Positions 18,660 to 30,894 of a DNA stretch of 32,000 nucleotides are shown here, in pieces (position 1 is the stretch's first letter; every line of letters begins with the position of its first letter). Below the pieces are notes generated by a model. The model was given only the letters and a program-made list of their open reading frames with translations, had not been told where the DNA came from and made no database searches. The stretch comes from Crocosphaera subtropica ATCC 51142 (GTDB lineage Bacteria; Cyanobacteriota; Cyanobacteriia; Cyanobacteriales; Microcystaceae). Both the position numbers and the translations under genes were made by a program. The stretch spans positions 3,030,001-3,062,000 of the forward strand of contig NC_010546.1 of NCBI RefSeq assembly GCF_000017845.1, read 5' to 3'.

Positions 18660-19517
18660 ATGTTAGGTTTAAAACCTGCTGCTTTAGGTGCAGCGTTTCT
18701 CGGTACGGCAGCGACCATGACTTTAATGGCTGAGTCTGCTCAAGCTGCTTTTATGGGTTTTCAGTCTAATCCAACAGGTCACACTCTTTCTCCAAATGCT
18801 ACGAGTCCTGCTGATGCAACTAAAAAGGATATTCGCCTTGACTCAATAACTAAAGATGGAAAAACTTTCACCGATTTCCTTTACGTTACTGGTGCTACGA
18901 TTATTCAAAATACTACATCCCTTGGACCAGGAAGTTCCGATCATGGAGATTTAACAGTTGGTGATGACTTTTTAACTCAAGGTCCTGCTAAAGAACAACC
19001 TACTGCTGCTGATGTTGTTGCTAGTTTAGGTAACAATAATTTGAACAGTATTATTGATACAGAAGATAGCGGAGGTACATCAATCTTCGATGTTTATTTT
19101 TCTAACCCAACTAATACCTTTGTTTTCTGGGAAAGAGGAAAAAATAGCGATCTTAAAGTCACTGCTATTCTTGCCGGGTCAGCTGGTGATCTTACCCCCA
19201 CTTTAGGTGATACTTTCACTATTACAGATGATCTTTGGACTAATACTGGTATCATGACAACTTTGTCAATTGATACCACAGAAATTACTGGCAGCAATGC
19301 ACCTCAAGAATTAGGAACTTATGGCTTGATGTACGATCAAGCTATTATCGGTCTTCGTTTACAAGGAGCCCCAGGCCTTAGCGGTCCTGATTACAAAGTT
19401 GTTGGTGTGGTTCCTGAACCTCTCACCATTTTAGGTGCGGGTACTGCCGTTGCTTTCGGTGGTGCGTTCAAGCGTAAACTTGGCAAAAAAGACAAAAAAG
19501 GATCTACCAAAGCATAG
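18660..19517 (+). CDS. Secreted PEP-CTERM sorting-domain protein
   Basis: 285 aa with an N-terminal signal peptide (AAFLGTAATMTLMAESAQA). The C-terminus VPEPLTILGAGTAVAFGGAFKRKLGKKDKK is a PEP motif, a TM helix and a basic tail. Confidence 0.85.
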   Translation: MLGLKPAALGAAFLGTAATMTLMAESAQAAFMGFQSNPTGHTLSPNATSPADATKKDIRLDSITKDGKTFTDFLYVTGATIIQNTTSLGPGSSDHGDLTVGDDFLTQGPAKEQPTAADVVASLGNNNLNSIIDTEDSGGTSIFDVYFSNPTNTFVFWERGKNSDLKVTAILAGSAGDLTPTLGDTFTITDDLWTNTGIMTTLSIDTTEITGSNAPQELGTYGLMYDQAIIGLRLQGAPGLSGPDYKVVGVVPEPLTILGAGTAVAFGGAFKRKLGKKDKKGSTKA

Positions 19518-19831: not shown

Positions 19832-20050
19832 TCAAGGTTTTGTTGGGTTTCGTTTCTCAACCCAACCTACATCTAAGTCTTGGCGTAAGCCTTTTCCTAT
19901 GTAGAATTTTAAAAGAGCTTCTAAAGACATATCCTGATGATGAGCAATTATTTTTAAAGATTCTAAAGTATCTTTAGGAATAGAAATTGATACCTTTTCT
20001 GAAGGACGAGGTTTAATAGTATAAGTAATTTCTTCGTTAGGTTTGTTCAT
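19832..20050 (-). CDS. brnA: BrnA-type antitoxin (ribbon-helix-helix)
   Basis: 72 aa. KVSISIPKDTLESLKIIAHHQDMSLEALLKFYIGKGLRQ fits a beta-strand plus two-helix RHH. It overlaps the upstream BrnT gene by 14 nt. The last ~12 codons derive from a palindromic element (see 19842-19866). Confidence 0.75.
   Translation of the reverse strand: MNKPNEEITYTIKPRPSEKVSISIPKDTLESLKIIAHHQDMSLEALLKFYIGKGLRQDLDVGWVEKRNPTKP
19842..19866. repeat. Small palindromic element (8-bp perfect stem, 9-nt loop)
   Basis: GTTGGGTT (19842-49), loop tcgtttctc, AACCCAAC (19859-66). Read on the minus strand it encodes ...GWVEKRNPT..., a peptide signature I associate with a dispersed short cyanobacterial repeat. There is no T-tract on either strand, so it is not a classical terminator. 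Confidence 0.6.
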
Positions 20051-20330
20051 ATTGTTTTTTCTCTATACGAGTAGCTAGACGTGCGGAAATAATTCGAGTA
20101 CGTTGGTTTCGTTCAATATAAACAACAAATAAGACACGATAAGCCAAGGAATAACCGAGAATAAATTCTCTTTGTTCACTATTTACTGTCGCATCTCCTG
20201 TTTGATAAAAGGGATCGAAAAATGCTTCGGTGGCTTCTTCAAATGTTACTCCATGTTTCTCAAGATTGATTTGCGCTTTATTGGAATCCCATTCAAATTC
20301 TAAACCCCGTAAGCGATAGACCACATTCAT
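20037..20330 (-). CDS. brnT: BrnT-family toxin (DUF497-type ribonuclease toxin)
   Basis: 97 aa. FEWDSNKAQINLEKHGVTFEEATEAFFDP is the characteristic BrnT N-terminus. The toxin-first gene order with an overlapping antitoxin gene matches brnTA. Confidence 0.8.
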   Translation of the reverse strand: MNVVYRLRGLEFEWDSNKAQINLEKHGVTFEEATEAFFDPFYQTGDATVNSEQREFILGYSLAYRVLFVVYIERNQRTRIISARLATRIEKKQYEQT

Positions 20331-20371: not shown

Positions 20372-20992
20372 TTAATATTGTACAGGTAGGGGGTCAAGAC
20401 TACGCCATAAATACCATGTTGCTACAGTGCGATAGGGTTTCCAAGGTTGTGAAAGTTCTTTAATTTGCTCTTTTGTTAAAAGATTTGTATTCCCGTAATG
20501 ACGTTGAATTGCATTAATTAATCCGAGATCAGCCATAGGAAAAATATCCTTTCGATGTAAATGAAAAATTAAAAACATTTGAGCCGTCCATGAACCAATT
20601 CCTTTAATGGACGTTAACTGTTTTGTAATTTCTTGATCACTCATAGTTTCCCAACTTTGAGGGGTTAAAATACCTTCTTCAAAAGCTTGGGCAACATTAC
20701 GAATATAGAGTATTTTTTGACGTGATAAACCACACTGACGTAAGGATAATTCGTCTATTTCTAAATAATTGTTGATACTAATCGAACCTAGTAAATTTTC
20801 TACTTTTCGACTAATAGAATGAGCAGCAGCTACAGAAATTTGTTGCCCAATAATAGCCTTCATTAAAGTTAAAAATGGATTATAATAGTTAAGCATTGTT
20901 TCAGAGGGATAGGAAGCTATTAACTCAGCTAGAATAGGGTCTTTTAGGGTTAAATATTCTTTAGCTTCGTGCCAATACTTAGGAGAATTCAT
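20372..20992 (-). CDS. DNA-3-methyladenine glycosylase II-like (HhH-GPD superfamily, AlkA-type core)
   Basis: 206 aa with the helix-hairpin-helix IKGIGSWTAQMFLIF and a downstream FPMADLGL with the catalytic-Asp context. It lacks the AlkA N-terminal domain. Confidence 0.75.
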   Translation of the reverse strand: MNSPKYWHEAKEYLTLKDPILAELIASYPSETMLNYYNPFLTLMKAIIGQQISVAAAHSISRKVENLLGSISINNYLEIDELSLRQCGLSRQKILYIRNVAQAFEEGILTPQSWETMSDQEITKQLTSIKGIGSWTAQMFLIFHLHRKDIFPMADLGLINAIQRHYGNTNLLTKEQIKELSQPWKPYRTVATWYLWRSLDPLPVQY

Positions 20993-21085: not shown

Positions 21086-22663
21086 TTATCTCACTGTAAA
21101 TTTACAACTATCGGCCCCCGTTGCTTTACAACTAATTTCCTCCACAGTTAACCTTGGTAAGTTGGGGATTGAACTTAATAAACCCTGAATCATACCGCGC
21201 AGAAAATAACAGCTAGGGCGATCACTGGTTTTGTAGAGACAAAAGGGATTAGCATGAACGTTCAGTTCATTGTTCTGACTATCAGCAATCATAAAATAAG
21301 AAATCGCAGGAACCACTAATTTATTAAGGGCAGAAACCATATTTTTGGCTGAAACTGCTTTAATTTTACCTTGTTTGACTAACCTTTCCCCTACATATTC
21401 CCCTAATGCCAACATCTGTTGATCATTAATATCTGGGTTGTTGTCCATATCTCGTACAGTAGCAACAAAATCAGGATAAAGGTTAATTAATTCTTGTCCC
21501 ATCTCCAGTAATCTCTTGTCAAGACGTGAGTTCGGTGTTAGGAGTTCGGAGGTCGGAGTTAGAATTTTTTGAACGAGGGAATCAGGGTTTGAGACTTCTT
21601 GTTGGTTGTCAGTTTTCCCTAGATTCTCTTCCGTCGAACTCAGGTTATTCATAAGTAGCGGAGAACTGACTGATTCTAATAGGGAAACCTCTGAAGTTTC
21701 GAGTTGGGTTTGTAATTTTTTGACAGTGCGTCCAATTTCTGCTTCTAGCAGTCCGGTTAATACTTTCCCTGTTTTGATTAATAAATAACTGTCTGGTGTG
21801 CAGTAAGCTAAGATTAAATGCCCTTGTTGACTCTTTAGAGCAATCGTTTCAATCTCTTGCCAGTCCAATTCATCTTGAGTCGTTTGAGCAACATAAAGCA
21901 TGGTTCCTGATAGAATTGAAGTGGTTTCTTCATCCATTCCCATCGGAGTTATTATGGATTTTCCTTCCTGAGAAACTAGAGCAAGGCCTTGAATATCAAG
22001 GGGCTTCATTAATAAATCGTGGAGAATAGTCTCAATAGTTAGAGGATTCATAAGTATTCCCTGATTAACGTCTGAAGATGGGGGTAAAACAGTTAAGGTT
22101 TGGTCAGGATATTGATAATTGAAAGCTGGTTCATTGGCTAGTTTAAAGTTTAAATCCTTAGGAATATATTGACTGATTAATTTACGTCGTTTTAAGGCTT
22201 GTTCTGTTTGTTTTTCAATTTTTTTAGGAATTTCAACCCCTAAACGATCGGACTCATAATCACAATGCTTAGGAATGGTTAGACTCTCTATGTCATAGGT
22301 AGGAGCATTCCGATTAATGTCTAGGATAGGGCCTGATTTTAAACAATTCCAGATGATATCTAACTGAGAAAAAGTCAGTTTTCCAAAGACCAAATAACAG
22401 ATAAAATAAGGAATATTGGTGCGACCGAAATCGTCACTCTCATCATTATACAGCCAACCAAAAAAAGTTTCTTCGAGGGATTTTTGTTGTAGATAAGCGG
22501 CTCGATATCTAGGCTCAGGGGGATTATAACTATTCCAATATCGTTCAACAATGTTTTTAACAAAAAATTGCTGATGTTCCGAAGAAATCAAGGAACTGGA
22601 TAGAATGGTAAAGCCAATGTTAGAAAAACTTGTATAAAAAATTTGTTCGACTGATAAATTCAT
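21086..22663 (-). CDS. Multidomain cytosolic protein: unknown N-terminal domain + Roadblock/LC7 (MglB-like) domain + low-complexity linker + V4R domain
   Basis: 525 aa. The N-terminal domain (aa 1-~115) reads EQIFYTSFSNIGF...YWNSYNPPEPRYRAAYL...FGWLYND..D.FGR.NIPYFICY. The segment aa ~203-318 (IQGLALVSQEGKSIITPMGMDEETTSILSGTMLYVAQ...GHLILAYCTPDSYLLIKTGKVLTGLLEAEIGRTVKKL) has the Roadblock/LC7 pattern. The segment aa ~385-525 ends in CYFLRGMIQGLL...VEEISCKATGADSCKFTV, a V4R-type Cys pattern. Confidence 0.65.
   Translation of the reverse strand: MNLSVEQIFYTSFSNIGFTILSSSLISSEHQQFFVKNIVERYWNSYNPPEPRYRAAYLQQKSLEETFFGWLYNDESDDFGRTNIPYFICYLVFGKLTFSQLDIIWNCLKSGPILDINRNAPTYDIESLTIPKHCDYESDRLGVEIPKKIEKQTEQALKRRKLISQYIPKDLNFKLANEPAFNYQYPDQTLTVLPPSSDVNQGILMNPLTIETILHDLLMKPLDIQGLALVSQEGKSIITPMGMDEETTSILSGTMLYVAQTTQDELDWQEIETIALKSQQGHLILAYCTPDSYLLIKTGKVLTGLLEAEIGRTVKKLQTQLETSEVSLLESVSSPLLMNNLSSTEENLGKTDNQQEVSNPDSLVQKILTPTSELLTPNSRLDKRLLEMGQELINLYPDFVATVRDMDNNPDINDQQMLALGEYVGERLVKQGKIKAVSAKNMVSALNKLVVPAISYFMIADSQNNELNVHANPFCLYKTSDRPSCYFLRGMIQGLLSSIPNLPRLTVEEISCKATGADSCKFTVR
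21528..21562. repeat. Heptamer tandem array (GRGTTMG)5 embedded in frame within a CDS
   Basis: The array reads gagttcg gtgttag gagttcg gaggtcg gagttag. On the coding (minus) strand it yields the 7-aa periodic peptide LTPTSEL/LTPNSRL (aa 368-381). It is the same repeat family as 18455-18503 and 28491-28518. Confidence 0.85.
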
Positions 22664-23206: not shown

Positions 23207-24625
23207 ATGTCCCAAAGAAAATTTATCAAAATTTTGATTCTCTTCTTGTGTGGATTAATCCTATTTAGTGCCATAGGATTAGTTATATTATGGCTTCAAA
23301 ATACCCAGAGAAATAACGATTTTCAAACTAACACTAACTCAATTTTTCCTAGGGTTGCAAACATTGAAATCAGTCAAGGTCAAAAGGTTTTAATCAGAGA
23401 AGAAAGTGCAGAAACTAAACTAGCTGCAGCCCAAGATATGGCAGCAGAGAACTATCAAATGGCTATGGATAAATTAACCCAATCTCTACAAACCTATCCC
23501 AATGATCCAGAAGCTTTAATTTATCTCAATAATGCACAAATTGGTAATAATAAATCCTATAGCATAGCTGTGGCTGCTCCTATTGCCACTAACACCAACG
23601 GAGCAAAAGAAATTCTTCGGGGAGTGGCTCAAGCACAACAAGAAATTAATCAAGCAGGAGGGATCAAAGGTATCCCTTTAAAAGTTGTGATTGCCAATGA
23701 TCATAATAGTCCTGAAATCGCCAAAAAACTAGCTCAGGAACTGGCTAATGATGCCGATATTTTAGGGGTTATTGGCCATTGGAGTAGTGATGTTACTTTA
23801 GCCTCAGCCGAAATTTATCAATCAGAACAATTAGTGGTTATTTCTCCGGTGAGTACCTCAGTAGAATTATCATCTTTTGGTGATTATATCTTTAGAACTG
23901 TTCCGAGCGATCGCTTTGCCGGTAGTGCGCTTTCTCGTTATATGGTGAATCAATTAGGCAGAAAAAAAGCAGCAATTTTTTTCAATTCACAAAGTAATTA
24001 TAGTCAATCTTTGAAAGATGAATTTACCAAAAGTTTATTTAGCGATGGTGGGGAAATTGTTGGAGAATTTGATTTATCTCAAAAGAATTTTGACCCCAAT
24101 AATGATTGGCAACAAGCCAAAAATCAAGGGGCTGAAGTATTAATGTTAGCCTTAACTACCGATACTATAGAAGAGGCGTTAGCCGTGATTAAAATTAATA
24201 AGAAAGAATTATTTTTATTAGGGGGTGATGATGGCTATAATACAGAACTTTTACAACGAGGTGCAGGGAATGCTGTGGGCATGGTTTTAGCCATTCCTTG
24301 GCATATTTCAGCCCATAATAATGACCCTTTTGTTGGGGTTGCCAAAAGACTCTGGGGAGGGGAAATTAGCTGGCGTACTGCCCTAGCTTATGATGCTACC
24401 CTAGCCTTGATTAATGGGTTAGGGGAAACCCCAAACCCCACCCGTCAAAGTTTGCAAGCAACTTTATCCAAACCCAATTTTTCCTTTCAAGGAGCCTCCG
24501 GTTCTGTCAATTTTTTGCCTTCAGGCGATCGTAATCAAGCGGTTCAATTAGTAAGGGTTAAAGCAAATAATCTGGCTGAATTTGGTTATGAATTCCATAT
24601 TTTTCCCTCTTTAAACAGCAATTAA
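23207..24625 (+). CDS. Membrane-anchored type-I periplasmic binding protein (Leu/Ile/Val-binding-protein-like) with an N-terminal TPR-like helix pair
   Basis: 472 aa with an N-terminal TM (ILILFLCGLILFSAIGLVILWL) and a TPR-like segment AAENYQMAMDKLTQSLQTYPNDPEALIYLNNAQI. This is followed by a LivK/Peripla_BP_6-like core (IAVAAPI...GAKEILRGVAQAQQEINQAGGIKGIPLKVVIANDHNSPE...VIGHWSSDVT...ISPVSTS). Confidence 0.75.
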   Translation: MSQRKFIKILILFLCGLILFSAIGLVILWLQNTQRNNDFQTNTNSIFPRVANIEISQGQKVLIREESAETKLAAAQDMAAENYQMAMDKLTQSLQTYPNDPEALIYLNNAQIGNNKSYSIAVAAPIATNTNGAKEILRGVAQAQQEINQAGGIKGIPLKVVIANDHNSPEIAKKLAQELANDADILGVIGHWSSDVTLASAEIYQSEQLVVISPVSTSVELSSFGDYIFRTVPSDRFAGSALSRYMVNQLGRKKAAIFFNSQSNYSQSLKDEFTKSLFSDGGEIVGEFDLSQKNFDPNNDWQQAKNQGAEVLMLALTTDTIEEALAVIKINKKELFLLGGDDGYNTELLQRGAGNAVGMVLAIPWHISAHNNDPFVGVAKRLWGGEISWRTALAYDATLALINGLGETPNPTRQSLQATLSKPNFSFQGASGSVNFLPSGDRNQAVQLVRVKANNLAEFGYEFHIFPSLNSN

Positions 24626-24793
24626 AATATTGTTATCTAAATAGGATGTCAAAAAAAGAGTTTAATGCTAGAATCATTAGAATTTAAAAAATATCTCAAT
24701 TAAGGTTCTACTTAAGTTACGAGCTTAACCATCTCTATAAATCTGGCAAAAAGGTGGGATTTACTCTATTTCATTTTGAATCTTTTGAATATA

Positions 24794-27049
24794 ATGTCTT
24801 CTAAACCAACATTATCTAGTATTTTAAACTCTAGTCCTCGTTCTTATTCTTCTCCTGCTGACAATTCATCTTGTCCTTATGTGGGTCTAAAATCCTTTGA
24901 AAATAGTGATCGTCATTATTTCTTTGGTCGAGAGACGTTAAGTCAACAACTCTTCAATAATCTTCAAGCGCATAATTTTTTAGCCCTTGTTGGGCCTTTG
25001 GGAGTTGGCAAATCATCGTTAGTACAAGCGGGCGTATTACCCTATTTCTCTTCTTCTCAGGAATGGGAGATTAAAGTCATAAAACCTAGGGAACACCCTC
25101 TAAAAAGTCTGGCCATGACTTTTCTGGATAGTCATTTGCCGACCTTACAAAAAGCTCAACAAATGGCAGATTTTCAACTTTGTTTAGAACAAGGTGCTGA
25201 GGGGTTTTCTCATTTACTACAGAGACTTTCTCGTCCTAAGTTACTCCTCGTTATTGATAATTTTGAAGAAATTTTTACTCTTAGTCAAAATGCTCAAGAA
25301 AGGTGGCAATTTTTAACTGCTTTACTCACTGCGTTAGATCAACATCCTCATCAATTGAAGATTATTACTATAATTAATGAGGAATTTATCAGTTATTGTC
25401 TTGAACAAAAACCCAAAAAACTAGGACAAAAAATTAAAGAAAATTGTATCCTTATTTCTCCTTTAAACGATCAAGAACGCTATGATGCTATCGTTTTACC
25501 AGCGCAACAAGCCAATTTAGAATTAGAATCTCAATTAGTTGAACAGTTACTGCAAGATACTCATCATTTAAAAGGAGGTCTTGCTTTACTTCAATATACC
25601 CTTTGGCAAGTTTGTCGCCTACGCAAAAATGTTAGATTAACTTTAGCTAGTTATGTACAGTTAGGAGAAGTTAAACACGTTTTAGATAAACAAGGGACTG
25701 AAACTTTTTATCAATTAAATAGAAGACAGCGAAACACAGCTAAAAAACTATTGTTAAGTCTGATTCATACCCGTGAAGGCATAGGGCATATTAGTAATTT
25801 AGTTCCACAAAGAAAATTAGAAAATTTACATGATTTCGACTATGTTTTGCAAAAGTTCAAGCAAGTAGGTTTTATTCAAACTGAAGTAGGCAATGACCTA
25901 ACTAACCAAGAAATTTTTTTGCGACTTTCTCACCCTATTGTGATCGAACATTGGAGGTTATTACAAGAGTGGTTAGGGCAACGTCAATCTATTTTTAGAC
26001 AACACCAAAATCTTGAAGCGTTTGCTCAAAGATGGCAAATTTCTAAGAGAGATAAGAAGTATTTATTGACAAGTAAAAAACTAAAAATTGCCCAAGCTTT
26101 AGAAAAACACCAAATAGGGTTTTCACCCTTAACGCAAGAATATATCCAGCAAAGTTCTAAAAAACAATCACGAAATATCCTTGTATATGGAATTTTACCC
26201 CTGACCCTTATTCTTGTTTTGGGTGGGTTGACTTATCGACATTGGCAAATTCAAAAAGCATGGCAAACCCTTGAACTGGCAGAAAATAATCCCTATGATA
26301 TTCGTCGTAAAGATGCTATCGAAAAACTCAATTTTTGGCAGATTAATTTTGAGGAAGTTCCTTTAACTTCTACTTATCTTAAAAATATTAATCTTCCGCA
26401 AGCTAATCTCAGCAATATGGATTTTTCTGGCACTAACTTTGAAAATGCCAATTTAGTGAAATCTGATCTGACCAATAGTAATTTCAAGAATGCTAACTTA
26501 ACGAATAGTCGTCTAATTAAGTCCAATTTATCCCAAAGTAATTTAGAGTTAACTAATTTAACTCAAGGGGATTTAACGGAGGCGAATTTATTTCAAACTA
26601 ACCTGACATTTGCTGCTTTAAATTTTGCTAATTTATCATCGGCTAATTTATCACAGTCTCGTCTCTATTTTGCTAACCTAGAAGATGCAAACCTCTTGAA
26701 AAGTAAGATCAGTCGTAGTAATCTTTCCGGTGCTAATTTAGCTTTTAGTAATCTCATGTTTGCTGATCTTTCTAATTCTAATTTAGCCTCTGCTAATTTA
26801 GTAGAGGCTAATCTTTTATCAACTAATTTAACGAATAGTAATCTTTTAGGTGCTAATTTAATTGAGGTTAAAAACCTTGATCCAAATAACTTAAAGCAAG
26901 CTTGTTTTTGGCAGTATGCTATCTATAAAGGAAAATGGAATACTCAGCAACAAGAATGGGAAATTGATGAAATGGCAAATCGACAATTTATTGAAAAATT
27001 AATCCAGGATAAGGCCTCCGATCCAAGAATCCAACCTACCTGTTCATAA
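24794..27049 (+). CDS. STAND-class P-loop NTPase (nSTAND-like) + single TM helix + C-terminal pentapeptide-repeat domain
   Basis: The track ORF starts at a TTG (24776); the first ATG is at 24794. The N-terminal CPYVGLKSFENSDRHYFFGRE motif directly precedes Walker A GPLGVGKSS (nt 24992-25018). The Walker B-like motif is LLLVIDNFEEIF. A helical/winged-helix-like region follows, then a TM helix ILVYGILPLTLILVLGGLTY (~26176-26238) and about 30 A(N/D)LxX pentapeptide units. Confidence 0.75.
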   Translation: MSSKPTLSSILNSSPRSYSSPADNSSCPYVGLKSFENSDRHYFFGRETLSQQLFNNLQAHNFLALVGPLGVGKSSLVQAGVLPYFSSSQEWEIKVIKPREHPLKSLAMTFLDSHLPTLQKAQQMADFQLCLEQGAEGFSHLLQRLSRPKLLLVIDNFEEIFTLSQNAQERWQFLTALLTALDQHPHQLKIITIINEEFISYCLEQKPKKLGQKIKENCILISPLNDQERYDAIVLPAQQANLELESQLVEQLLQDTHHLKGGLALLQYTLWQVCRLRKNVRLTLASYVQLGEVKHVLDKQGTETFYQLNRRQRNTAKKLLLSLIHTREGIGHISNLVPQRKLENLHDFDYVLQKFKQVGFIQTEVGNDLTNQEIFLRLSHPIVIEHWRLLQEWLGQRQSIFRQHQNLEAFAQRWQISKRDKKYLLTSKKLKIAQALEKHQIGFSPLTQEYIQQSSKKQSRNILVYGILPLTLILVLGGLTYRHWQIQKAWQTLELAENNPYDIRRKDAIEKLNFWQINFEEVPLTSTYLKNINLPQANLSNMDFSGTNFENANLVKSDLTNSNFKNANLTNSRLIKSNLSQSNLELTNLTQGDLTEANLFQTNLTFAALNFANLSSANLSQSRLYFANLEDANLLKSKISRSNLSGANLAFSNLMFADLSNSNLASANLVEANLLSTNLTNSNLLGANLIEVKNLDPNNLKQACFWQYAIYKGKWNTQQQEWEIDEMANRQFIEKLIQDKASDPRIQPTCS
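26378..26870 (+). repeat. Pentapeptide-repeat coding array (15-nt periodicity) inside the STAND NTPase gene
   Basis: The translation reads ...ANLSNMDFSGTNFENANLVKSDLTNSNFKNANLTNSRLIKSNLSQSNLELTNLTQGDLTEANLFQTNL... Recurrent gctaattta / aatcta DNA words appear every 15 nt. The array is in frame, so it is not a CRISPR or a non-coding repeat. Confidence 0.9.
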
Positions 27050-27128
27050 TCATTTCTTGTCCTTACATATAAGTTTTTTAGTTTGATATTTTATTCTAAT
27101 CAAAATATAGTTAAATTACTTTTAACCT

Positions 27129-28472
27129 ATGAATTTTTTATCATCCTCCTCTGAATATCCTCATTTTAATCTTCTGAGTATTGGCCAGCGTGGTGTAGGA
27201 AAAACCGTATTTTTAGCTGGTAGCTACGCAGAAATGAATCAAGTTTCTGCTGATGAAAATCACCAAAAAATTTGGTTTGAATGTGAGAACGAAGAGGATA
27301 AAAAAACCCTCAATTCTATTTTAGACTATGTGAAACGAACTGGCGAATATCCGCCACCAACGTTAAAAATGACCAATTTTGATTTTATTTTAAAACAAAA
27401 AAATCATAAAAAAGCAAAAACACTATGTGATTTTAGTTGGTCTGATATTCCAGGAGAATATTGTGATTTTAATCACCCTGATTTTCAAGACCTGGTGCTT
27501 TCTTCTCATAGTTGTTGTGTCTTTATTAATGGGGAAAAATTGGTCAAAGATCCTACCTATATCGATGAATTAGAAGGATTAGTTAAACAAGTAATGGCCA
27601 TTGCTATTTTAATCGATCAAAAAGCCATAGATTATAGATTTGCTTTGATTATTACTCAATGCGATCGCTTGGCTTCAGGGTCTATGACACGTTTACAAAT
27701 TGAAGAGAATTTACAATTTTTGACCACCCGTCTAGAAGCAGCAGATGCAAACTATCAACGGTTTTATTCAGGAATTCCTATCGTTTCTAACGATAAAGGA
27801 CATTATTTTCAAGTGAAAGGTTCAGCCGCAGCTTTTCTTTGGATTGTCTCAGAATTACAAAAAGGAACCTCGTTATCCCGTCATAATAACTCCTTAGAAG
27901 GGTCGTTAAAAGTTGATATTTCTGCGTTACAATATTGGCTATCTACTTCGCCAAAAATCCTCTGGCCAGTAGTGGGAATTGTGGGTGGTTTATTTGGCTT
28001 AATGGCGGTGGGAATATTGGTACTCAATCAATTGTCACAACCAAACAATGATAATCGAGTAGCCCAACAATTGACTCAACAACTAGAACAAACCATACGC
28101 AACGATCCCAATGACACCGAAAGCAAATTAACGTTAGTGAATCAGTATCTTAATCAAGAAAAAGTCGACCAAGCCATTGATCTTCTTAAGACAATTGTTG
28201 AGCAGGAACCTGATAATTTAGAACGGAAACTTCAGTTAGCTAATTTGTATGAAATCACAGGAAATATACAGCAAGCAGAATCCGTCTACGATAGAATTTT
28301 AGCAGAAAATTCTAGTTATTTTAATGCCCTATTTGGTAAAGCTTTAATCCGTCATAAACAAGGCGATCGCACCACAGCTAAAACCTTATTACAAGAAGCT
28401 GAAAAAAATGCACCTTCAGACGATTTAAGAAGCAAAACGAAGGCAGCTTTAAAACAACTGAATCTAGAATAA
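27129..28472 (+). CDS. Ras-like (TRAFAC-type) GTPase domain + single TM helix + C-terminal TPR repeats
   Basis: 447 aa. The motifs are G1 GQRGVGKT (aa 19-26, nt 27183-27206), a switch-I Thr candidate (PPPTLKMT), G3 DIPGE (aa 106-110) and a G4-like TQCD (aa 176-179). A TM helix ILWPVVGIVGGLFGLMAVGILVL (~27958-28026) follows, then 3-4 TPR-like repeats (aa ~310-447). Confidence 0.65.
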   Translation: MNFLSSSSEYPHFNLLSIGQRGVGKTVFLAGSYAEMNQVSADENHQKIWFECENEEDKKTLNSILDYVKRTGEYPPPTLKMTNFDFILKQKNHKKAKTLCDFSWSDIPGEYCDFNHPDFQDLVLSSHSCCVFINGEKLVKDPTYIDELEGLVKQVMAIAILIDQKAIDYRFALIITQCDRLASGSMTRLQIEENLQFLTTRLEAADANYQRFYSGIPIVSNDKGHYFQVKGSAAAFLWIVSELQKGTSLSRHNNSLEGSLKVDISALQYWLSTSPKILWPVVGIVGGLFGLMAVGILVLNQLSQPNNDNRVAQQLTQQLEQTIRNDPNDTESKLTLVNQYLNQEKVDQAIDLLKTIVEQEPDNLERKLQLANLYEITGNIQQAESVYDRILAENSSYFNALFGKALIRHKQGDRTTAKTLLQEAEKNAPSDDLRSKTKAALKQLNLE

Positions 28473-28673: not shown

Positions 28674-29027
28674 ATGTTTTTAGATGAAGTTAGTTTTCTT
28701 GATATTTTCCTTGAAGGATTAAAAGTCCTGGGAATGATTTTTTTACTGCTAACCTTAGTGGATGCAGCCGAGAAATATCCCTCCTTAGCAGGTAGTCGAT
28801 GGAATCTTATTATTCTTGGGTTTGTCTTGATGTTAGTTGGCTTTGCTTTTGATTGGTCTGATGAGTTTATTAATTATGAAGCTTCTTCTTTATTAAATAT
28901 TATTGAGGTTGTAATTGAAGAAGTGGGATTAATTGGTGGACTTTTTTTAGTCACATTTGGATTTAAAAGTTGGTTTAGGTTTATGAGTCGTTTCTTAGGA
29001 ATCTCATCGGCTAATCGTGACAGGTAG
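28674..29027 (+). CDS. Small integral membrane protein, hypothetical
   Basis: 117 aa with 3-4 hydrophobic helices (VLGMIFLLLTLV, LIILGFVLMLVGFAF, VGLIGGLFLVTFGF). No recognisable motif. Confidence 0.45.
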   Translation: MFLDEVSFLDIFLEGLKVLGMIFLLLTLVDAAEKYPSLAGSRWNLIILGFVLMLVGFAFDWSDEFINYEASSLLNIIEVVIEEVGLIGGLFLVTFGFKSWFRFMSRFLGISSANRDR

Positions 29028-29196: not shown

Positions 29197-30894
29197 ATGA
29201 CCCTTTCTAAAAAACTATCAAATCTGATTGCCTCATCGATTATTCTTGGTTCATTTTTCATGTTTTCCCAATCTGCACAGGGGATGAAACTCTCTTTGAA
29301 TCTTTTGGGGACCCATGAAACCGGCATTTTTGATGAAGGTTCAGCAGAAATTCCAGCCTACGATCCCCTTAGTGGTAGAGTGTTTGTCGTCAATGGATTT
29401 GCCAATGAACTAACGGTTTTGGATATTAATAATCCGAGAAATCCTATTGCTTTATCTCCCATTAGTTTAACGGGAGGAGGGGTTAATAGTGTAGCGGTGA
29501 AAAATGGTGTTGTGGCCGTAGCAGAACAAGCAACCATCAAAACCGATCCAGGAATGGTGTCCTTTTATAACACCGATGGACTCTTTTTAAACAGTGTTAT
29601 GGTGGGCGCTTTACCGGATATGTTGGACTTTACTCCAGATGGTAGCAAAATTTTAGTGGCCAACGAAGGAGAACCGAACGATGATTATACAATCGATCCA
29701 GAAGGTTCGGTCAGTATTATTGATATTAGTGGTGGCATTGGTTCTCTGAGTCAATCTAATGTCATTACAGCAGGTTTCCAAGCATTTAATAATAGTCGTC
29801 AGCAATTAATTGATGCAGGGGTTCGTATTTTTGGCCCCGATGCCGACAATCTTACTGATCCTGATGCTATTGCTACTGTAGCGCGAGACTTAGAACCCGA
29901 ATACATTGCCATTTCAGAGGACTCAACCACTGCTTGGGTAGCGTTACAAGAAAACAATGCCTTAGGGGTTTTAGACATCAACAGTGGAACCTTTACCAAT
30001 ATTATTCCCCTTGGGTTTAAGGATTATTCTTTAGACGGTAATTCCTTGGATGCCAGTAACGAAGATGGAACCATTAATCTTCAAACCTATGATAATCTTT
30101 TCGGGATGTATCAACCCGATGCGATCGCTACTTACACCGTCAATGGTCAAACCTATATTGTGACGGCCAATGAAGGAGACTCAAGGGATTACGATGGATT
30201 TAGTGAAGAGGCCAGAGTTGCAGATGTTGTCCTCGATCCAGATGCTTTTCCTAATGCAACTGAACTTCAACAAGACTCAGTTTTAGGTCGTTTAAATATT
30301 ACCACCACGTTAGGTGATATAGATAACGACGGAGACTTTGATGAACTCTATTCCTATGGGGCCCGTTCTTTTAGCATTTGGGATGATGAGGGTAACTTAG
30401 TTTTCGATAGTGGTAATCAATTTGAGGTTCTCTTAGCTCAACTTTTACCTGAATATTTTAATGCCAGTAATGATAACAATACCTTTGATAATCGTAGTGA
30501 CGATAAAGGACCCGAACCCGAAGCCGTTACCATCGGGAGGATAGGTGATCAAATCTATGCCTTTATTGGCTTAGAACGGATTGGCGGGATCATGATTTAT
30601 AACATCACCGATCCTGAGAATCCTTCTTTTGTGAACTATACCAATAATAGAAACTTTACTGAGGATGTCATGACTTCTGCGGCCGGAGATTTAGGGCCTG
30701 AAGGGGTCGTCTTTATTAATCCCGAAGACAGTCCCACCAATTCACCTTTATTAGTCGTTGCCAACGAAATTAGTGGAACAACCAGTGTTTATGGGATTTC
30801 TAAAGTCCCTGAACCCAATGCTATTTTAGGATTAATGACAGTAGGTTTGATGGGAAGTTTCCGACTGTTGAAACACCGCAAAAAATCTAATTAG
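29197..30894 (+). CDS. Secreted beta-propeller protein of the 'choice-of-anchor I' type (phosphatase/phytase-like) with a PEP-CTERM anchor
   Basis: 565 aa with a signal peptide (ILGSFFMFSQSAQG). Motifs LEPEYIAISEDSTTAWVALQENNALGVLD, YQPDAIA, ANEGDSRDY and GPEPEAV fit this family. The C-terminus VPEPNAILGLMTVGLMGSFRLLKHRKKSN is a PEP-CTERM sorting signal. Confidence 0.7.
   Translation: MTLSKKLSNLIASSIILGSFFMFSQSAQGMKLSLNLLGTHETGIFDEGSAEIPAYDPLSGRVFVVNGFANELTVLDINNPRNPIALSPISLTGGGVNSVAVKNGVVAVAEQATIKTDPGMVSFYNTDGLFLNSVMVGALPDMLDFTPDGSKILVANEGEPNDDYTIDPEGSVSIIDISGGIGSLSQSNVITAGFQAFNNSRQQLIDAGVRIFGPDADNLTDPDAIATVARDLEPEYIAISEDSTTAWVALQENNALGVLDINSGTFTNIIPLGFKDYSLDGNSLDASNEDGTINLQTYDNLFGMYQPDAIATYTVNGQTYIVTANEGDSRDYDGFSEEARVADVVLDPDAFPNATELQQDSVLGRLNITTTLGDIDNDGDFDELYSYGARSFSIWDDEGNLVFDSGNQFEVLLAQLLPEYFNASNDNNTFDNRSDDKGPEPEAVTIGRIGDQIYAFIGLERIGGIMIYNITDPENPSFVNYTNNRNFTEDVMTSAAGDLGPEGVVFINPEDSPTNSPLLVVANEISGTTSVYGISKVPEPNAILGLMTVGLMGSFRLLKHRKKSN

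Follow-up and report, generated by a model that had tools for sequence, protein, structure and literature searches.

DO-GTPases are TRAFAC-class GTPases that carry a conserved glutamate in the Walker B motif, and their GAP1 partner is usually encoded downstream (Kaur, Burroughs, Iyer and Aravind 2020, eLife, PMC7159879). Some of them end in a transmembrane helix followed by outside domains, and they have been described in conflict systems (PMC7159879). The published systems are mobile and variable, and were reported to be 'nearly completely absent in cyanobacteria' (PMC7159879). Herein, we analysed a stretch of 32,000 nucleotides from Crocosphaera subtropica ATCC 51142 (contig NC_010546.1, positions 3,030,001 to 3,062,000; hereafter the window, with coordinates counted from its first letter), in which the gene at 27129-28472 encodes a membrane-spanning protein whose N-terminal domain resembles the DO-GTPases. 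On balance, we favour the reading that this bitopic cyanobacterial membrane GTPase is one half of a conserved two-protein transmembrane switch, with the product of 21086-22663 as its partner in this genome.

Roadblock domains are regarded as sporadic in bacteria, and to our knowledge membrane-spanning bacterial GTPase switches are hardly known. Roadblock and longin domains form dimeric platforms that work as GEFs (guanine nucleotide exchange factors) or GAPs (GTPase-activating proteins) for small GTPases (PMC13408092; PMC10933270), and the V4R fold, which is related to TRAPPC3/Bet3, binds small hydrophobic ligands (PMC10933270). The locus described here resembles DO-GTPase2 and DO-GTPase1 (PF19993/PF19975) in its TRAFAC character, in the Glu after DxxG, in a dedicated partner gene, and in having transmembrane and outside domains in some members and partners. 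Unlike the DO-GTPases, the family is cyanobacteria-wide and conserved, its P-loop at amino acid (aa) 19 leaves no space for an N-terminal zinc ribbon, and there is no paired GTPase paralogue, with one family member only in the 32-kb window. No Pfam match to GAP1-N/M/C, GASH or FNIII was obtained in the partners, for GAP1 even at E<=1.

Conserved motifs of the G domain

The reading frame at 27129-28472 on the + strand is intact, with an ATG start and 447 codons, and is laid out as follows.

27129-28472, + strand: whole gene of the 447-aa bitopic protein (open reading frame list and translation; same start in the homologue alignment)
27129-27893, + strand: G domain (aa 1-255), predicted TRAFAC-class GTPase fold (AlphaFold2, Foldseek, PF19993 matches in 25 of 38 relatives)
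27183-27206, + strand: G1/Walker A motif GQRGVGKT (aa 19-26), which fits GxxxxGK[ST] (translation, conservation)
27264-27341, + strand: family-specific insertion after alpha1 and ahead of switch I, made of a strand (aa 47-52) and a helix (aa 55-71), which accounts for the wide G1-G2 spacing (model)
27348-27362, + strand: candidate G2/switch I YPPPT (aa 74-78) with Thr78 (conservation; directly before beta2 in the model)
27444-27458, + strand: G3/Walker B DIPGE (aa 106-110), with Glu110 at the place of Ras Gln61 (conservation)
27654-27665, + strand: G4 TQCD (aa 176-179), end of beta5 (conservation, model)
27765-27773, + strand: G5-like YSG (aa 213-215), end of beta6 (conservation, model)
27969-28025, + strand: single transmembrane helix VVGIVGGLFGLMAVGILVL (aa 281-299, 19 residues; Kyte-Doolittle 2.62)
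28053-28460, + strand: tail of tetratricopeptide repeats (TPRs; aa ~309-444, 3-4 repeats; Pfam TPR models above cutoffs)

Translation of the exact sub-coordinates gave the motifs in the order GQRGVGKT, YPPPT, DIPGE, TQCD and YSG. Their conservation was counted over 258 unique full-length homologues spanning the whole G domain. Residues G19, G24, K25, Y74, T78, T176 and D179 were present in all 258 members, P75, P108 and G109 in 257, and R21, D106 and E110 in 255. At position 214, Ser was found in 210 members and Thr in 35, and position 215 was A, G or S. This pattern exceeds chance by far. The ordered G1, switch-I Thr, G3 and G4-like motifs listed in the initial annotation were therefore confirmed by translation, by conservation and by their placement in the structural model described below.

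The residue after DxxG, where Ras has its catalytic Gln, is Glu family-wide, as had been noted for the window protein; DxxGQ was found neither in that protein nor in the 255 of 258 members that have DxxGE. Judged from the alignment, the Glu is a family constant rather than a decayed Gln, and a Glu in Walker B is the hallmark of DO-GTPase2. For G4, the guanine-specificity motif [NT]KxD occurs in a variant form, which is TQCD in the window protein, with Lys replaced by Gln. Position 177 is Gln in 132 and Lys in 122 of the 258 members, and thus the family G4 reads T[Q/K]CD. The departure from NKxD described earlier holds in that T-x-C-D is family-wide, but it is only mild, about half of the family having TKCD. 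The Asp of NKxD motifs normally reads the guanine base, and Asp179 was never lost; GTP is the predicted nucleotide.

The all but invariant Arg21 (27189-27191) lies at the Ras Gly12 register, by simple P-loop register. P-loop arginines, at a neighbouring position, are cis catalytic fingers in the dimerising GTPases GBP1 and atlastin, and by this analogy Arg21 hints at dimer-dependent hydrolysis. Equally, Arg21 and Glu110 could form an intrinsic catalytic set. Because such a set could be built in, the low intrinsic hydrolysis suggested in the initial annotation is possible but not implied. Five cysteines (C100, C112, C129, C130 and C178) are near-invariant over the 258 members, with C178 inside G4 (T-Q-C-D) and C112 two residues past G3. 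These residues may form a site for metal binding or redox chemistry, or do no more than pack the core.

Predicted fold of the G domain

With an alignment of 38 non-redundant family members as input, AlphaFold2 gave a model of the G domain with a mean predicted local distance difference test (pLDDT) score of 90.2 and a predicted template modelling score of 0.88. The elements follow the order beta1, P-loop, alpha1, insert (strand 47-52, helix 55-71), switch I, beta2, beta3 and DxxG, and continue with alpha2, beta4, alpha3, beta5, TQCD, alpha4, beta6, YSG, a beta-hairpin and alpha5. The motifs take canonical positions in the model: G1 comes past beta1, T78 before beta2 (strand 83-91), D106-I-P-G109 closes strand 96-106 (beta3) and T176-Q-C-D179 closes strand 170-176 (beta5). 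As modelled, the strands follow an order, and the motifs occupy sites, that are typical of TRAFAC GTPases. The Ras-like spacing claimed earlier is only partly right, the distance from G1 to G3 being 47 residues in Ras and 87 in the window protein because a strand and a helix are inserted at aa 47-71.

A Foldseek search of the PDB with the model yielded 458 matches (E<=1e-3), and the 50 listed were all GTPases. The best was YcjX (E=4e-7), and eEF1A, RagC/D, K-Ras, EF-Tu, Arf, Ran and SR-beta were also found. KAP, AAA and STAND proteins, of which the first two had been named in the initial annotation as examples of non-GTPase P-loop families, were absent from these 50 of 458. TM-scores to known GTPases were 0.4-0.54 when normalised to the query and 0.6-0.67 on small-GTPase targets. 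At the sequence level, searches of the G domain against PDB sequences, both with the single sequence and with a profile, brought up nothing beyond P-loop matches without significance, to septin Cdc3, Rab32 and Rem2 (E about 1 for the latter two). Together with the motifs, the model indicates a TRAFAC-class GTPase fold; identity as a KAP, AAA or STAND ATPase was rejected on the motifs and on the fold, as judged from the 50 listed matches.

Transmembrane helix and TPR tail

As initially proposed, the G domain is followed by a single transmembrane helix (Kyte-Doolittle 2.62) and then by 3-4 TPRs. Pfam TPR models matched at aa ~309-435 with scores above their cutoffs (TPR_19, 56.6 bits, cutoff 25; TPR_14, 41.3, cutoff 23.5), as did TPR_16 (37.2 bits, cutoff 32.7) and TPR_2 (29.4, cutoff 27) in the tail. 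NCBIfam gave weak matches of the tail to Ycf3, PilW, LapB and BepA, all far under cutoffs. A transmembrane helix follows the G domain in 234 of the 258 members. Past it, the tail is 10-40 aa long in 68 members and a TPR domain of 100-180 aa in about 160. Because the tail is short in 68 members, the G domain plus the helix can be regarded as the conserved core and the TPRs as optional; the short form of 310-340 aa consists of the G domain and a C-terminal helix. The architecture, which had been considered unusual, is common across cyanobacteria and is annotated there merely as a TPR protein.

An N-terminal signal sequence is absent, the P-loop beginning at residue 19. Lys and Arg together numbered 2.65 in the 15 residues before the helix versus 1.15 in the 15 after it, with an excess on the N-terminal side in 179 of 234 members. 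This positive-inside bias favours an N-in orientation. Because a nucleotide-dependent domain must be cytoplasmic, and in view of the transmembrane topology, the TPR tail would be extracytoplasmic, lying in the periplasm or in the thylakoid lumen.

Genetic linkage with a partner family

For the distribution scan, one genome per species was taken, which gave 80 loci, and the open reading frames of the 8-kb flanks around these GTPase loci were clustered, with domain-level searches. A family defined by an N-terminal domain of ~170 aa (the N-domain) was linked to the GTPase genes. Its member in the window has the following features.

21086-22663, - strand: predicted partner, 525 aa, with N-domain, then Roadblock, then V4R (N-domain family linked to GTPase genes)
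22154-22663, - strand: N-domain (aa 1-170; alignments; AlphaFold2 pLDDT 84.7)
21704-22051, - strand: Roadblock/LC7 domain (aa ~205-320; family profile against the PDB)
21092-21268, - strand: V4R domain (aa 466-524) with four Cys (Pfam PF02830, 44.7 bits, cutoff 31)

Of the 80 loci, 54 have an N-domain gene at most three genes away from the GTPase gene. In 46 it is the direct same-strand neighbour, lying downstream in 37 and upstream in 9, and the gaps are mostly 12-300 bp. The GTPase and partner families are thus genetically linked, and the link to the 21086-22663 product, raised in the initial annotation, is strongly backed by this conserved gene neighbourhood. The two subunits also appear to share out their outside domains. 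Among 28 short-tailed GTPases, 21 had a partner with a transmembrane helix and a long outside domain, and among 27 TPR-tailed ones, 14 had a soluble partner. An outside domain of at least 90 aa was present on at least one subunit in 48 of 55 pairs. The two families also co-vary, in that the identity matrices of the G domain and the N-domain correlate (Mantel r=0.78, reached by 0 of 2000 permutations).

Aa 1-168 of the window partner are 38-45% identical to most partners of distant cyanobacteria. Its Roadblock domain reached only E=0.13 with single-sequence Pfam, whereas the family profile matched the Robl_LC7 structures 7f8m and 9jue at E=5.7e-8, CvnB5 (3leq) at 1.4e-4 and dynein roadblock at ~1e-3, which upholds its first description as a Roadblock protein. 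The four cysteines are kept in its V4R domain, as in Zn-binding V4R domains. Across the partners, the modules after the N-domain vary: Roadblock alone; Roadblock and V4R (the window and other Crocosphaera-type genomes); a transmembrane helix and a WD40 propeller (26 loci); a transmembrane helix and PBP_like_2 (5 loci); or caspase, transmembrane helix and WD40. Roadblock is confined to a subset of partners, and the constant element is the N-domain. A homologue search with the N-domain found no protein by single sequence and 16 by a 31-sequence profile, yet 58 copies are present in 84 loci. Because these copies escaped the indexed homologue search, the partner-family counts are lower bounds.

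Neither Pfam, searched as far as E<=1, nor the PDB sequences matched the N-domain. It was modelled with AlphaFold2 from 17 sequences, and the model shows the order beta-beta-alpha-beta-beta-beta-alpha, with further helices after it. Beta-beta-alpha-beta-beta-beta-alpha is the longin order. Foldseek returned nothing at E<1e-3, with TM-scores of 0.33-0.37. The higher-probability matches, which were FNIP2 (from FLCN-FNIP2-Rag-Ragulator, probability 0.94), TagF, NPRL2 (GATOR1), DENND10 and LAMTOR, are all GTPase-regulator platform domains, and the rest was low-probability fluorescent-protein noise. The N-domain is possibly longin-like, which we treat as a lead and not as a finding.

Family assignment and distribution

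With aa 1-302 as the query, 599 homologues were found, and every named one was cyanobacterial. The N-terminal 260 residues alone gave no significant match in Pfam, NCBIfam or PDB sequences. Because Pfam sees the TPR models only, the homologues are labelled 'tetratricopeptide repeat protein' in public records. The window protein scored 16.8 bits with DO-GTPase1 and 14.3 bits (E=0.033) with DO-GTPase2, the Pfam cutoff being 27 for both. Among the 38 relatives, 25 matched PF19993 (DO-GTPase2) at E<=0.01, the best at 5.7e-8, and some were at or near the cutoff of 27 bits (P0113, 27.8; P0059, 26.9). A profile search of 1.84 billion representative proteins gave 293 matches at E<=1e-3; the remote ones among them belong to DO-GTPase1/2 at the Pfam level, and some carry a GUN4 fusion. 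Two of these, P0243 and P0266 (943 and 1124 aa), have a DO-GTPase1-type domain with a GUN4-like (porphyrin-binding) domain fused C-terminally; P0242 (503 aa) showed a marginal partial GUN4 match only.

These profile matches point to a cyanobacterial sister or peripheral clade of DO-GTPase2, distantly related to the DO-GTPase2/YcjX TRAFAC group, and the label of a Ras-like GTPase in the initial annotation had to be given up. Membership in the Ras superfamily was rejected on three grounds: there were no profile matches, G3 is DxxGE, and the G domain spans ~255 aa with an insert, versus a compact ~170 aa. The window protein matched none of Pfam Ras, Roc and Arf, and among the 38 relatives one weakly matched Roc and one Gtr1_RagA.

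All taxon-named loci among the 80 are cyanobacterial, from Gloeobacterales to Nostocales, except one in a metagenome-assembled genome; several are titled 'uncultured bacterium'. The exception (L021) is a family member on a contig labelled Candidatus Gracilibacteria, with typically cyanobacterial neighbours, and is most likely a misbinned contig. Two to three paralogues per genome are common, especially in filamentous cyanobacteria. With a mean column identity of 56% and a phylum-wide range, the family looks vertically inherited rather than mobile.

We found no literature describing the GTPase family or the partner family, which is not proof of absence. What appears new is a cyanobacteria-specific, bitopic, DO-GTPase-like TRAFAC GTPase together with an undescribed partner family that includes Roadblock and V4R modules. 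With this family, the DO-GTPase theme would reach into a phylum from which such systems had been reported as almost missing. It also marks an annotation gap, with hundreds of cyanobacterial 'tetratricopeptide repeat protein' or 'hypothetical' entries carrying a conserved membrane-anchored GTPase domain and having a dedicated partner. The family is testable in genetically tractable cyanobacteria, and filamentous Nostocales have the short GTPase with WD40 partners.

A putative two-protein transmembrane switch

From these data we infer how the pair would sit in the membrane, whether its halves would touch, which would regulate which and what signal they would receive. One protein would unite a cytoplasmic G domain (aa 1-255), a linker, the transmembrane helix (aa 281-299) and an extracytoplasmic TPR domain. 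The N-domain/Roadblock platform of the partner would bind the G domain at the membrane and control which nucleotide state it is in, serving it as GAP and/or GEF in the manner of MglB and of longin/Roadblock platforms. Inputs could arrive through the TPR tail on one side and the small-ligand pocket of the partner V4R domain on the other, the place of which would elsewhere be taken by extracytoplasmic WD40 or periplasmic binding protein (PBP) domains. The G domain would then be the nucleotide switch that controls the output, and the pair a transmembrane switch. Such a pair would offer a tractable bacterial system for how Roadblock/V4R (Bet3-fold), and possibly longin-like, platforms regulate GTPases.

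Several observations weigh against this two-protein switch. In the window, the partner gene is not adjacent to the GTPase gene; it lies on the other strand, 4.5 kb upstream, and two genes separate the pair. In the closest non-Crocosphaera relatives (Microcystaceae, Snowella; L008, L010-L020) no partner gene was found within 8 kb. The Mantel correlation between the identity matrices of the two families is confounded by shared species phylogeny. The window protein falls under the Pfam thresholds for DO-GTPase1/2 and so is not a formal member of PF19993. The structural TM-scores to known GTPases are merely moderate, which on the query side is due to the insert that enlarges the G domain, and the longin-like assignment of the N-domain is weak. 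In the literature searched, no biochemical, localisation or genetic data on the family were found.

Local arrangement of the locus

The gene order in the window is partner (-), Peripla_BP_6 protein (+), nSTAND1-pentapeptide nucleoside triphosphatase (NTPase; +), GTPase (+) and a 117-aa protein (+). The neighbours are the following.

23207-24625, + strand: membrane-anchored periplasmic binding protein, 472 aa, with N-terminal transmembrane segment, TPR-like segment and Peripla_BP_6 (Pfam, sequence)
24776-27049, + strand: nSTAND1 NTPase with HetL-like pentapeptide repeats, 757 aa, TTG start (PF20703, E=1e-85)
28674-29027, + strand: 117-aa protein with several hydrophobic segments and no family match (sequence)

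This order is preserved in other Crocosphaera genomes (L005, L006 and L009; GTPase identity 86-88%). A Peripla_BP_6 (Leu/Ile/Val-type) gene stands beside the GTPase or its paralogue in Crocosphaera-type loci only (L007, L009, L052), and the 23207-24625 product is a possible periplasmic ligand-binding accessory of the TPR tail. In L052, a paralogous GTPase gene has the Peripla_BP_6 gene directly upstream and an N-domain-Roadblock-V4R gene directly downstream, all on one strand. Because of this order, the window looks like a rearranged form of an ancestral compact locus into which nSTAND1 was inserted. The nSTAND gene is adjacent in 3 of the 80 loci only (Crocosphaera clade); it was rejected on that count as a general component, and is probably an insertion incidental to the GTPase system. 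The gene for the 117-aa protein is kept downstream of the GTPase in L007 and L009 and lies nearby in L052, and its product is probably membrane-embedded.

Alternative explanations

The separation of the two genes raises the possibility that in this genome the GTPase and the 21086-22663 protein were uncoupled by an inversion and a two-gene insertion, the GTPase acting alone or with a partner encoded elsewhere. We hold this to be unlikely, though with enough weight to be kept in mind. The opposite strands, the 4.5-kb distance and the nearest non-Crocosphaera relatives without a nearby partner would all fit it. So would the position of the partner's closest outgroup homologues (L052, L056; ~50% identity), which stand beside a different GTPase paralogue, 46-47% identical to that of the window. 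A promoter-like site at 27083-27111, just 5' of the GTPase start, would fit as well; it comes from a scan that gave 31 sites overall versus a shuffled mean of 24.2 (standard deviation 4.5), about 1.5 standard deviations above. However, the same arrangement has been kept in the Crocosphaera genomes L005, L006 and L009, and the 32-kb window holds a single GTPase and a single N-domain gene. The main rival to the signalling switch itself is a conflict (defence) system, in which the GTPase would be the NTPase core of an anti-phage or programmed cell death device of the DO-GTPase-GAP1 type, and would gate changing effectors, for instance the caspase that some partners carry or the nSTAND1-pentapeptide NTPase encoded next to it. 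Homology to DO-GTPase2, described in conflict systems, caspase (Peptidase_C14) and WD40 arrays on some partners, the two to three paralogues in many genomes, especially of filamentous cyanobacteria, and the nSTAND1 gene directly upstream are what such a system would show. Against this, the nSTAND adjacency is lineage-specific, most partners have no recognisable toxin, and the strong conservation from Gloeobacterales to Nostocales looks vertical. In addition, the DO-GTPase systems in the literature are stated to be all but missing from cyanobacteria and rely on GAP1, which was not detected in the partners here. PADLOC, run on five window proteins, gave no match of note: the GTPase had two matches below significance, both in its TPR tail, and the other four had none. 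We therefore regard a conflict system as a doubtful explanation.

Less probable still is a membrane-bound assembly or targeting factor, that is, a receptor-type GTPase like SR-beta, Toc34 or YcjX-YcjF with a TPR scaffold for periplasmic or lumenal proteins, which would place the GTPase in envelope or photosystem biogenesis. YcjX as the top structural match, SR-beta among the matches, and the layout that the short form shares with tail-anchored receptor GTPases would agree with this role, and the cyanobacteria-only range would suit a thylakoid-related one. Cyanobacterial TPR proteins are commonly scaffolds, and the sub-cutoff matches to Ycf3, PilW, LapB and BepA in the tail point the same way. 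Yet no sequence-level link to SR-beta, Toc34 or YcjX was found, no translocon or assembly gene was among the conserved neighbours, and no YcjF/DUF697 gene lay near the family members examined; moreover, the conserved partner is of a regulator type (Roadblock, V4R, sensor-like WD40 or PBP). It is very improbable that the N-terminal domain belongs to the P-loop NTPases outside the GTPases (KAP, AAA+ or STAND ATPase) and carries GTPase-like motifs by chance. The single sequence gave weak Pfam matches to AAA_14, AAA_7 and NACHT, which cover the P-loop only and lie far under cutoffs, whereas the 50 listed structural matches, the invariant G4 Asp and switch-I Thr, the DxxG motif, and the TRAFAC-typical strand order and motif placement all speak for a GTPase.

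Comparison with other GTPase systems

The pair resembles MglA-MglB (Myxococcus / Thermus) and CvnD-CvnB in that a bacterial GTPase is genetically coupled to a Roadblock/LC7 protein, from which control over the nucleotide state of the GTPase is expected. Unlike in those systems, the GTPase is not MglA- or Ras-like in sequence and is integral in the membrane, a separate N-domain forms the constant part of the partner, and neither a CvnA kinase of the conservon type nor CvnC is present. MglA gave no sequence match and was not among the 50 listed structural matches. YcjX (DUF463, PDB 6nz5 / 6nz6), the best structural match with a query-normalised TM-score of 0.50-0.54, is likewise a stand-alone TRAFAC GTPase of bacteria that carries an insertion, and it associates with a membrane protein, YcjF. 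However, YcjX is soluble and much larger (458 aa); the family profile gave no sequence match to it, the window protein no match to PF04317, and the window contains no DUF697 gene. In L085 (5524-8526), a true but very distant PF19993 DO-GTPase2 gene (P0229), which looks non-cyanobacterial, is followed by a gene for a 264-aa transmembrane protein. The N-terminus of that protein weakly matches the N-domain profile (9.6 bits), and a DUF697 (YcjF-type) gene comes next. This order gives a hint that the DO-GTPase, N-domain and YcjX/YcjF systems share an old connection, and in view of the weak match the N-domain may be remotely homologous to the GAP1-type partner.

Rag-Ragulator, GATOR1, FLCN-FNIP and TRAPP offer another likeness, a membrane-held GTPase with a longin/Roadblock platform regulator. 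Their parts recur here, with RagC/D among the top G-domain matches and FNIP2, NPRL2 and LAMTOR among the top weak N-domain matches. Unlike in the Rag and TRAPP systems, the GTPase itself spans the membrane, sequence homology to subunits of Rag or TRAPP is lacking, and the longin assignment is not statistically secure. We consider it improbable that the pair is the bacterial equivalent of those eukaryotic switches for nutrients and trafficking that are built on membrane GTPases (Rag-Ragulator-GATOR/FLCN, TRAPP-Rab). As such a counterpart, a single polypeptide would unite longin-like, Roadblock and Bet3/V4R-like folds and control a membrane-fixed GTPase, and the V4R pocket together with Peripla_BP_6 (elsewhere PBP_like_2 or WD40) would report small-molecule or nutrient status across the membrane. 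If true, the longin/Roadblock/Bet3 toolkit would operate on bacterial membrane GTPases, beyond the Ras superfamily and archaea. The short form also has the layout of the Toc34-type tail-anchored receptor GTPases of plastids, a G domain plus one C-terminal transmembrane helix, and cyanobacteria are the plastid-ancestor lineage. A relationship to Toc34 was rejected, the likeness being one of layout alone, with no Toc34/AIG1 match in PDB sequence searches or in the 50 listed of the 458 Foldseek matches.

Other features of the neighbourhood

In 12 of the 80 loci (L008, L011-L014, L017-L020, L001, L065 and L069), the GTPase gene has an ammonium transporter (Amt) gene no more than three genes away, mostly directly upstream and divergent. 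This may reflect plain synteny of one clade or a nitrogen-related role. Further features of the window are listed below.

20037-20330 and 20372-20992, both - strand: BrnT-family type II toxin gene (PF04365, E=3e-26) beside an HhH-GPD DNA glycosylase gene
18660-19517 and 29197-30894, both + strand: PEP-CTERM/exosortase-sorted surface proteins, XDP2 (NF041929) and a choice-of-anchor I protein with a PEP-CTERM tail

The two PEP-CTERM/exosortase-sorted proteins flank the GTPase region.

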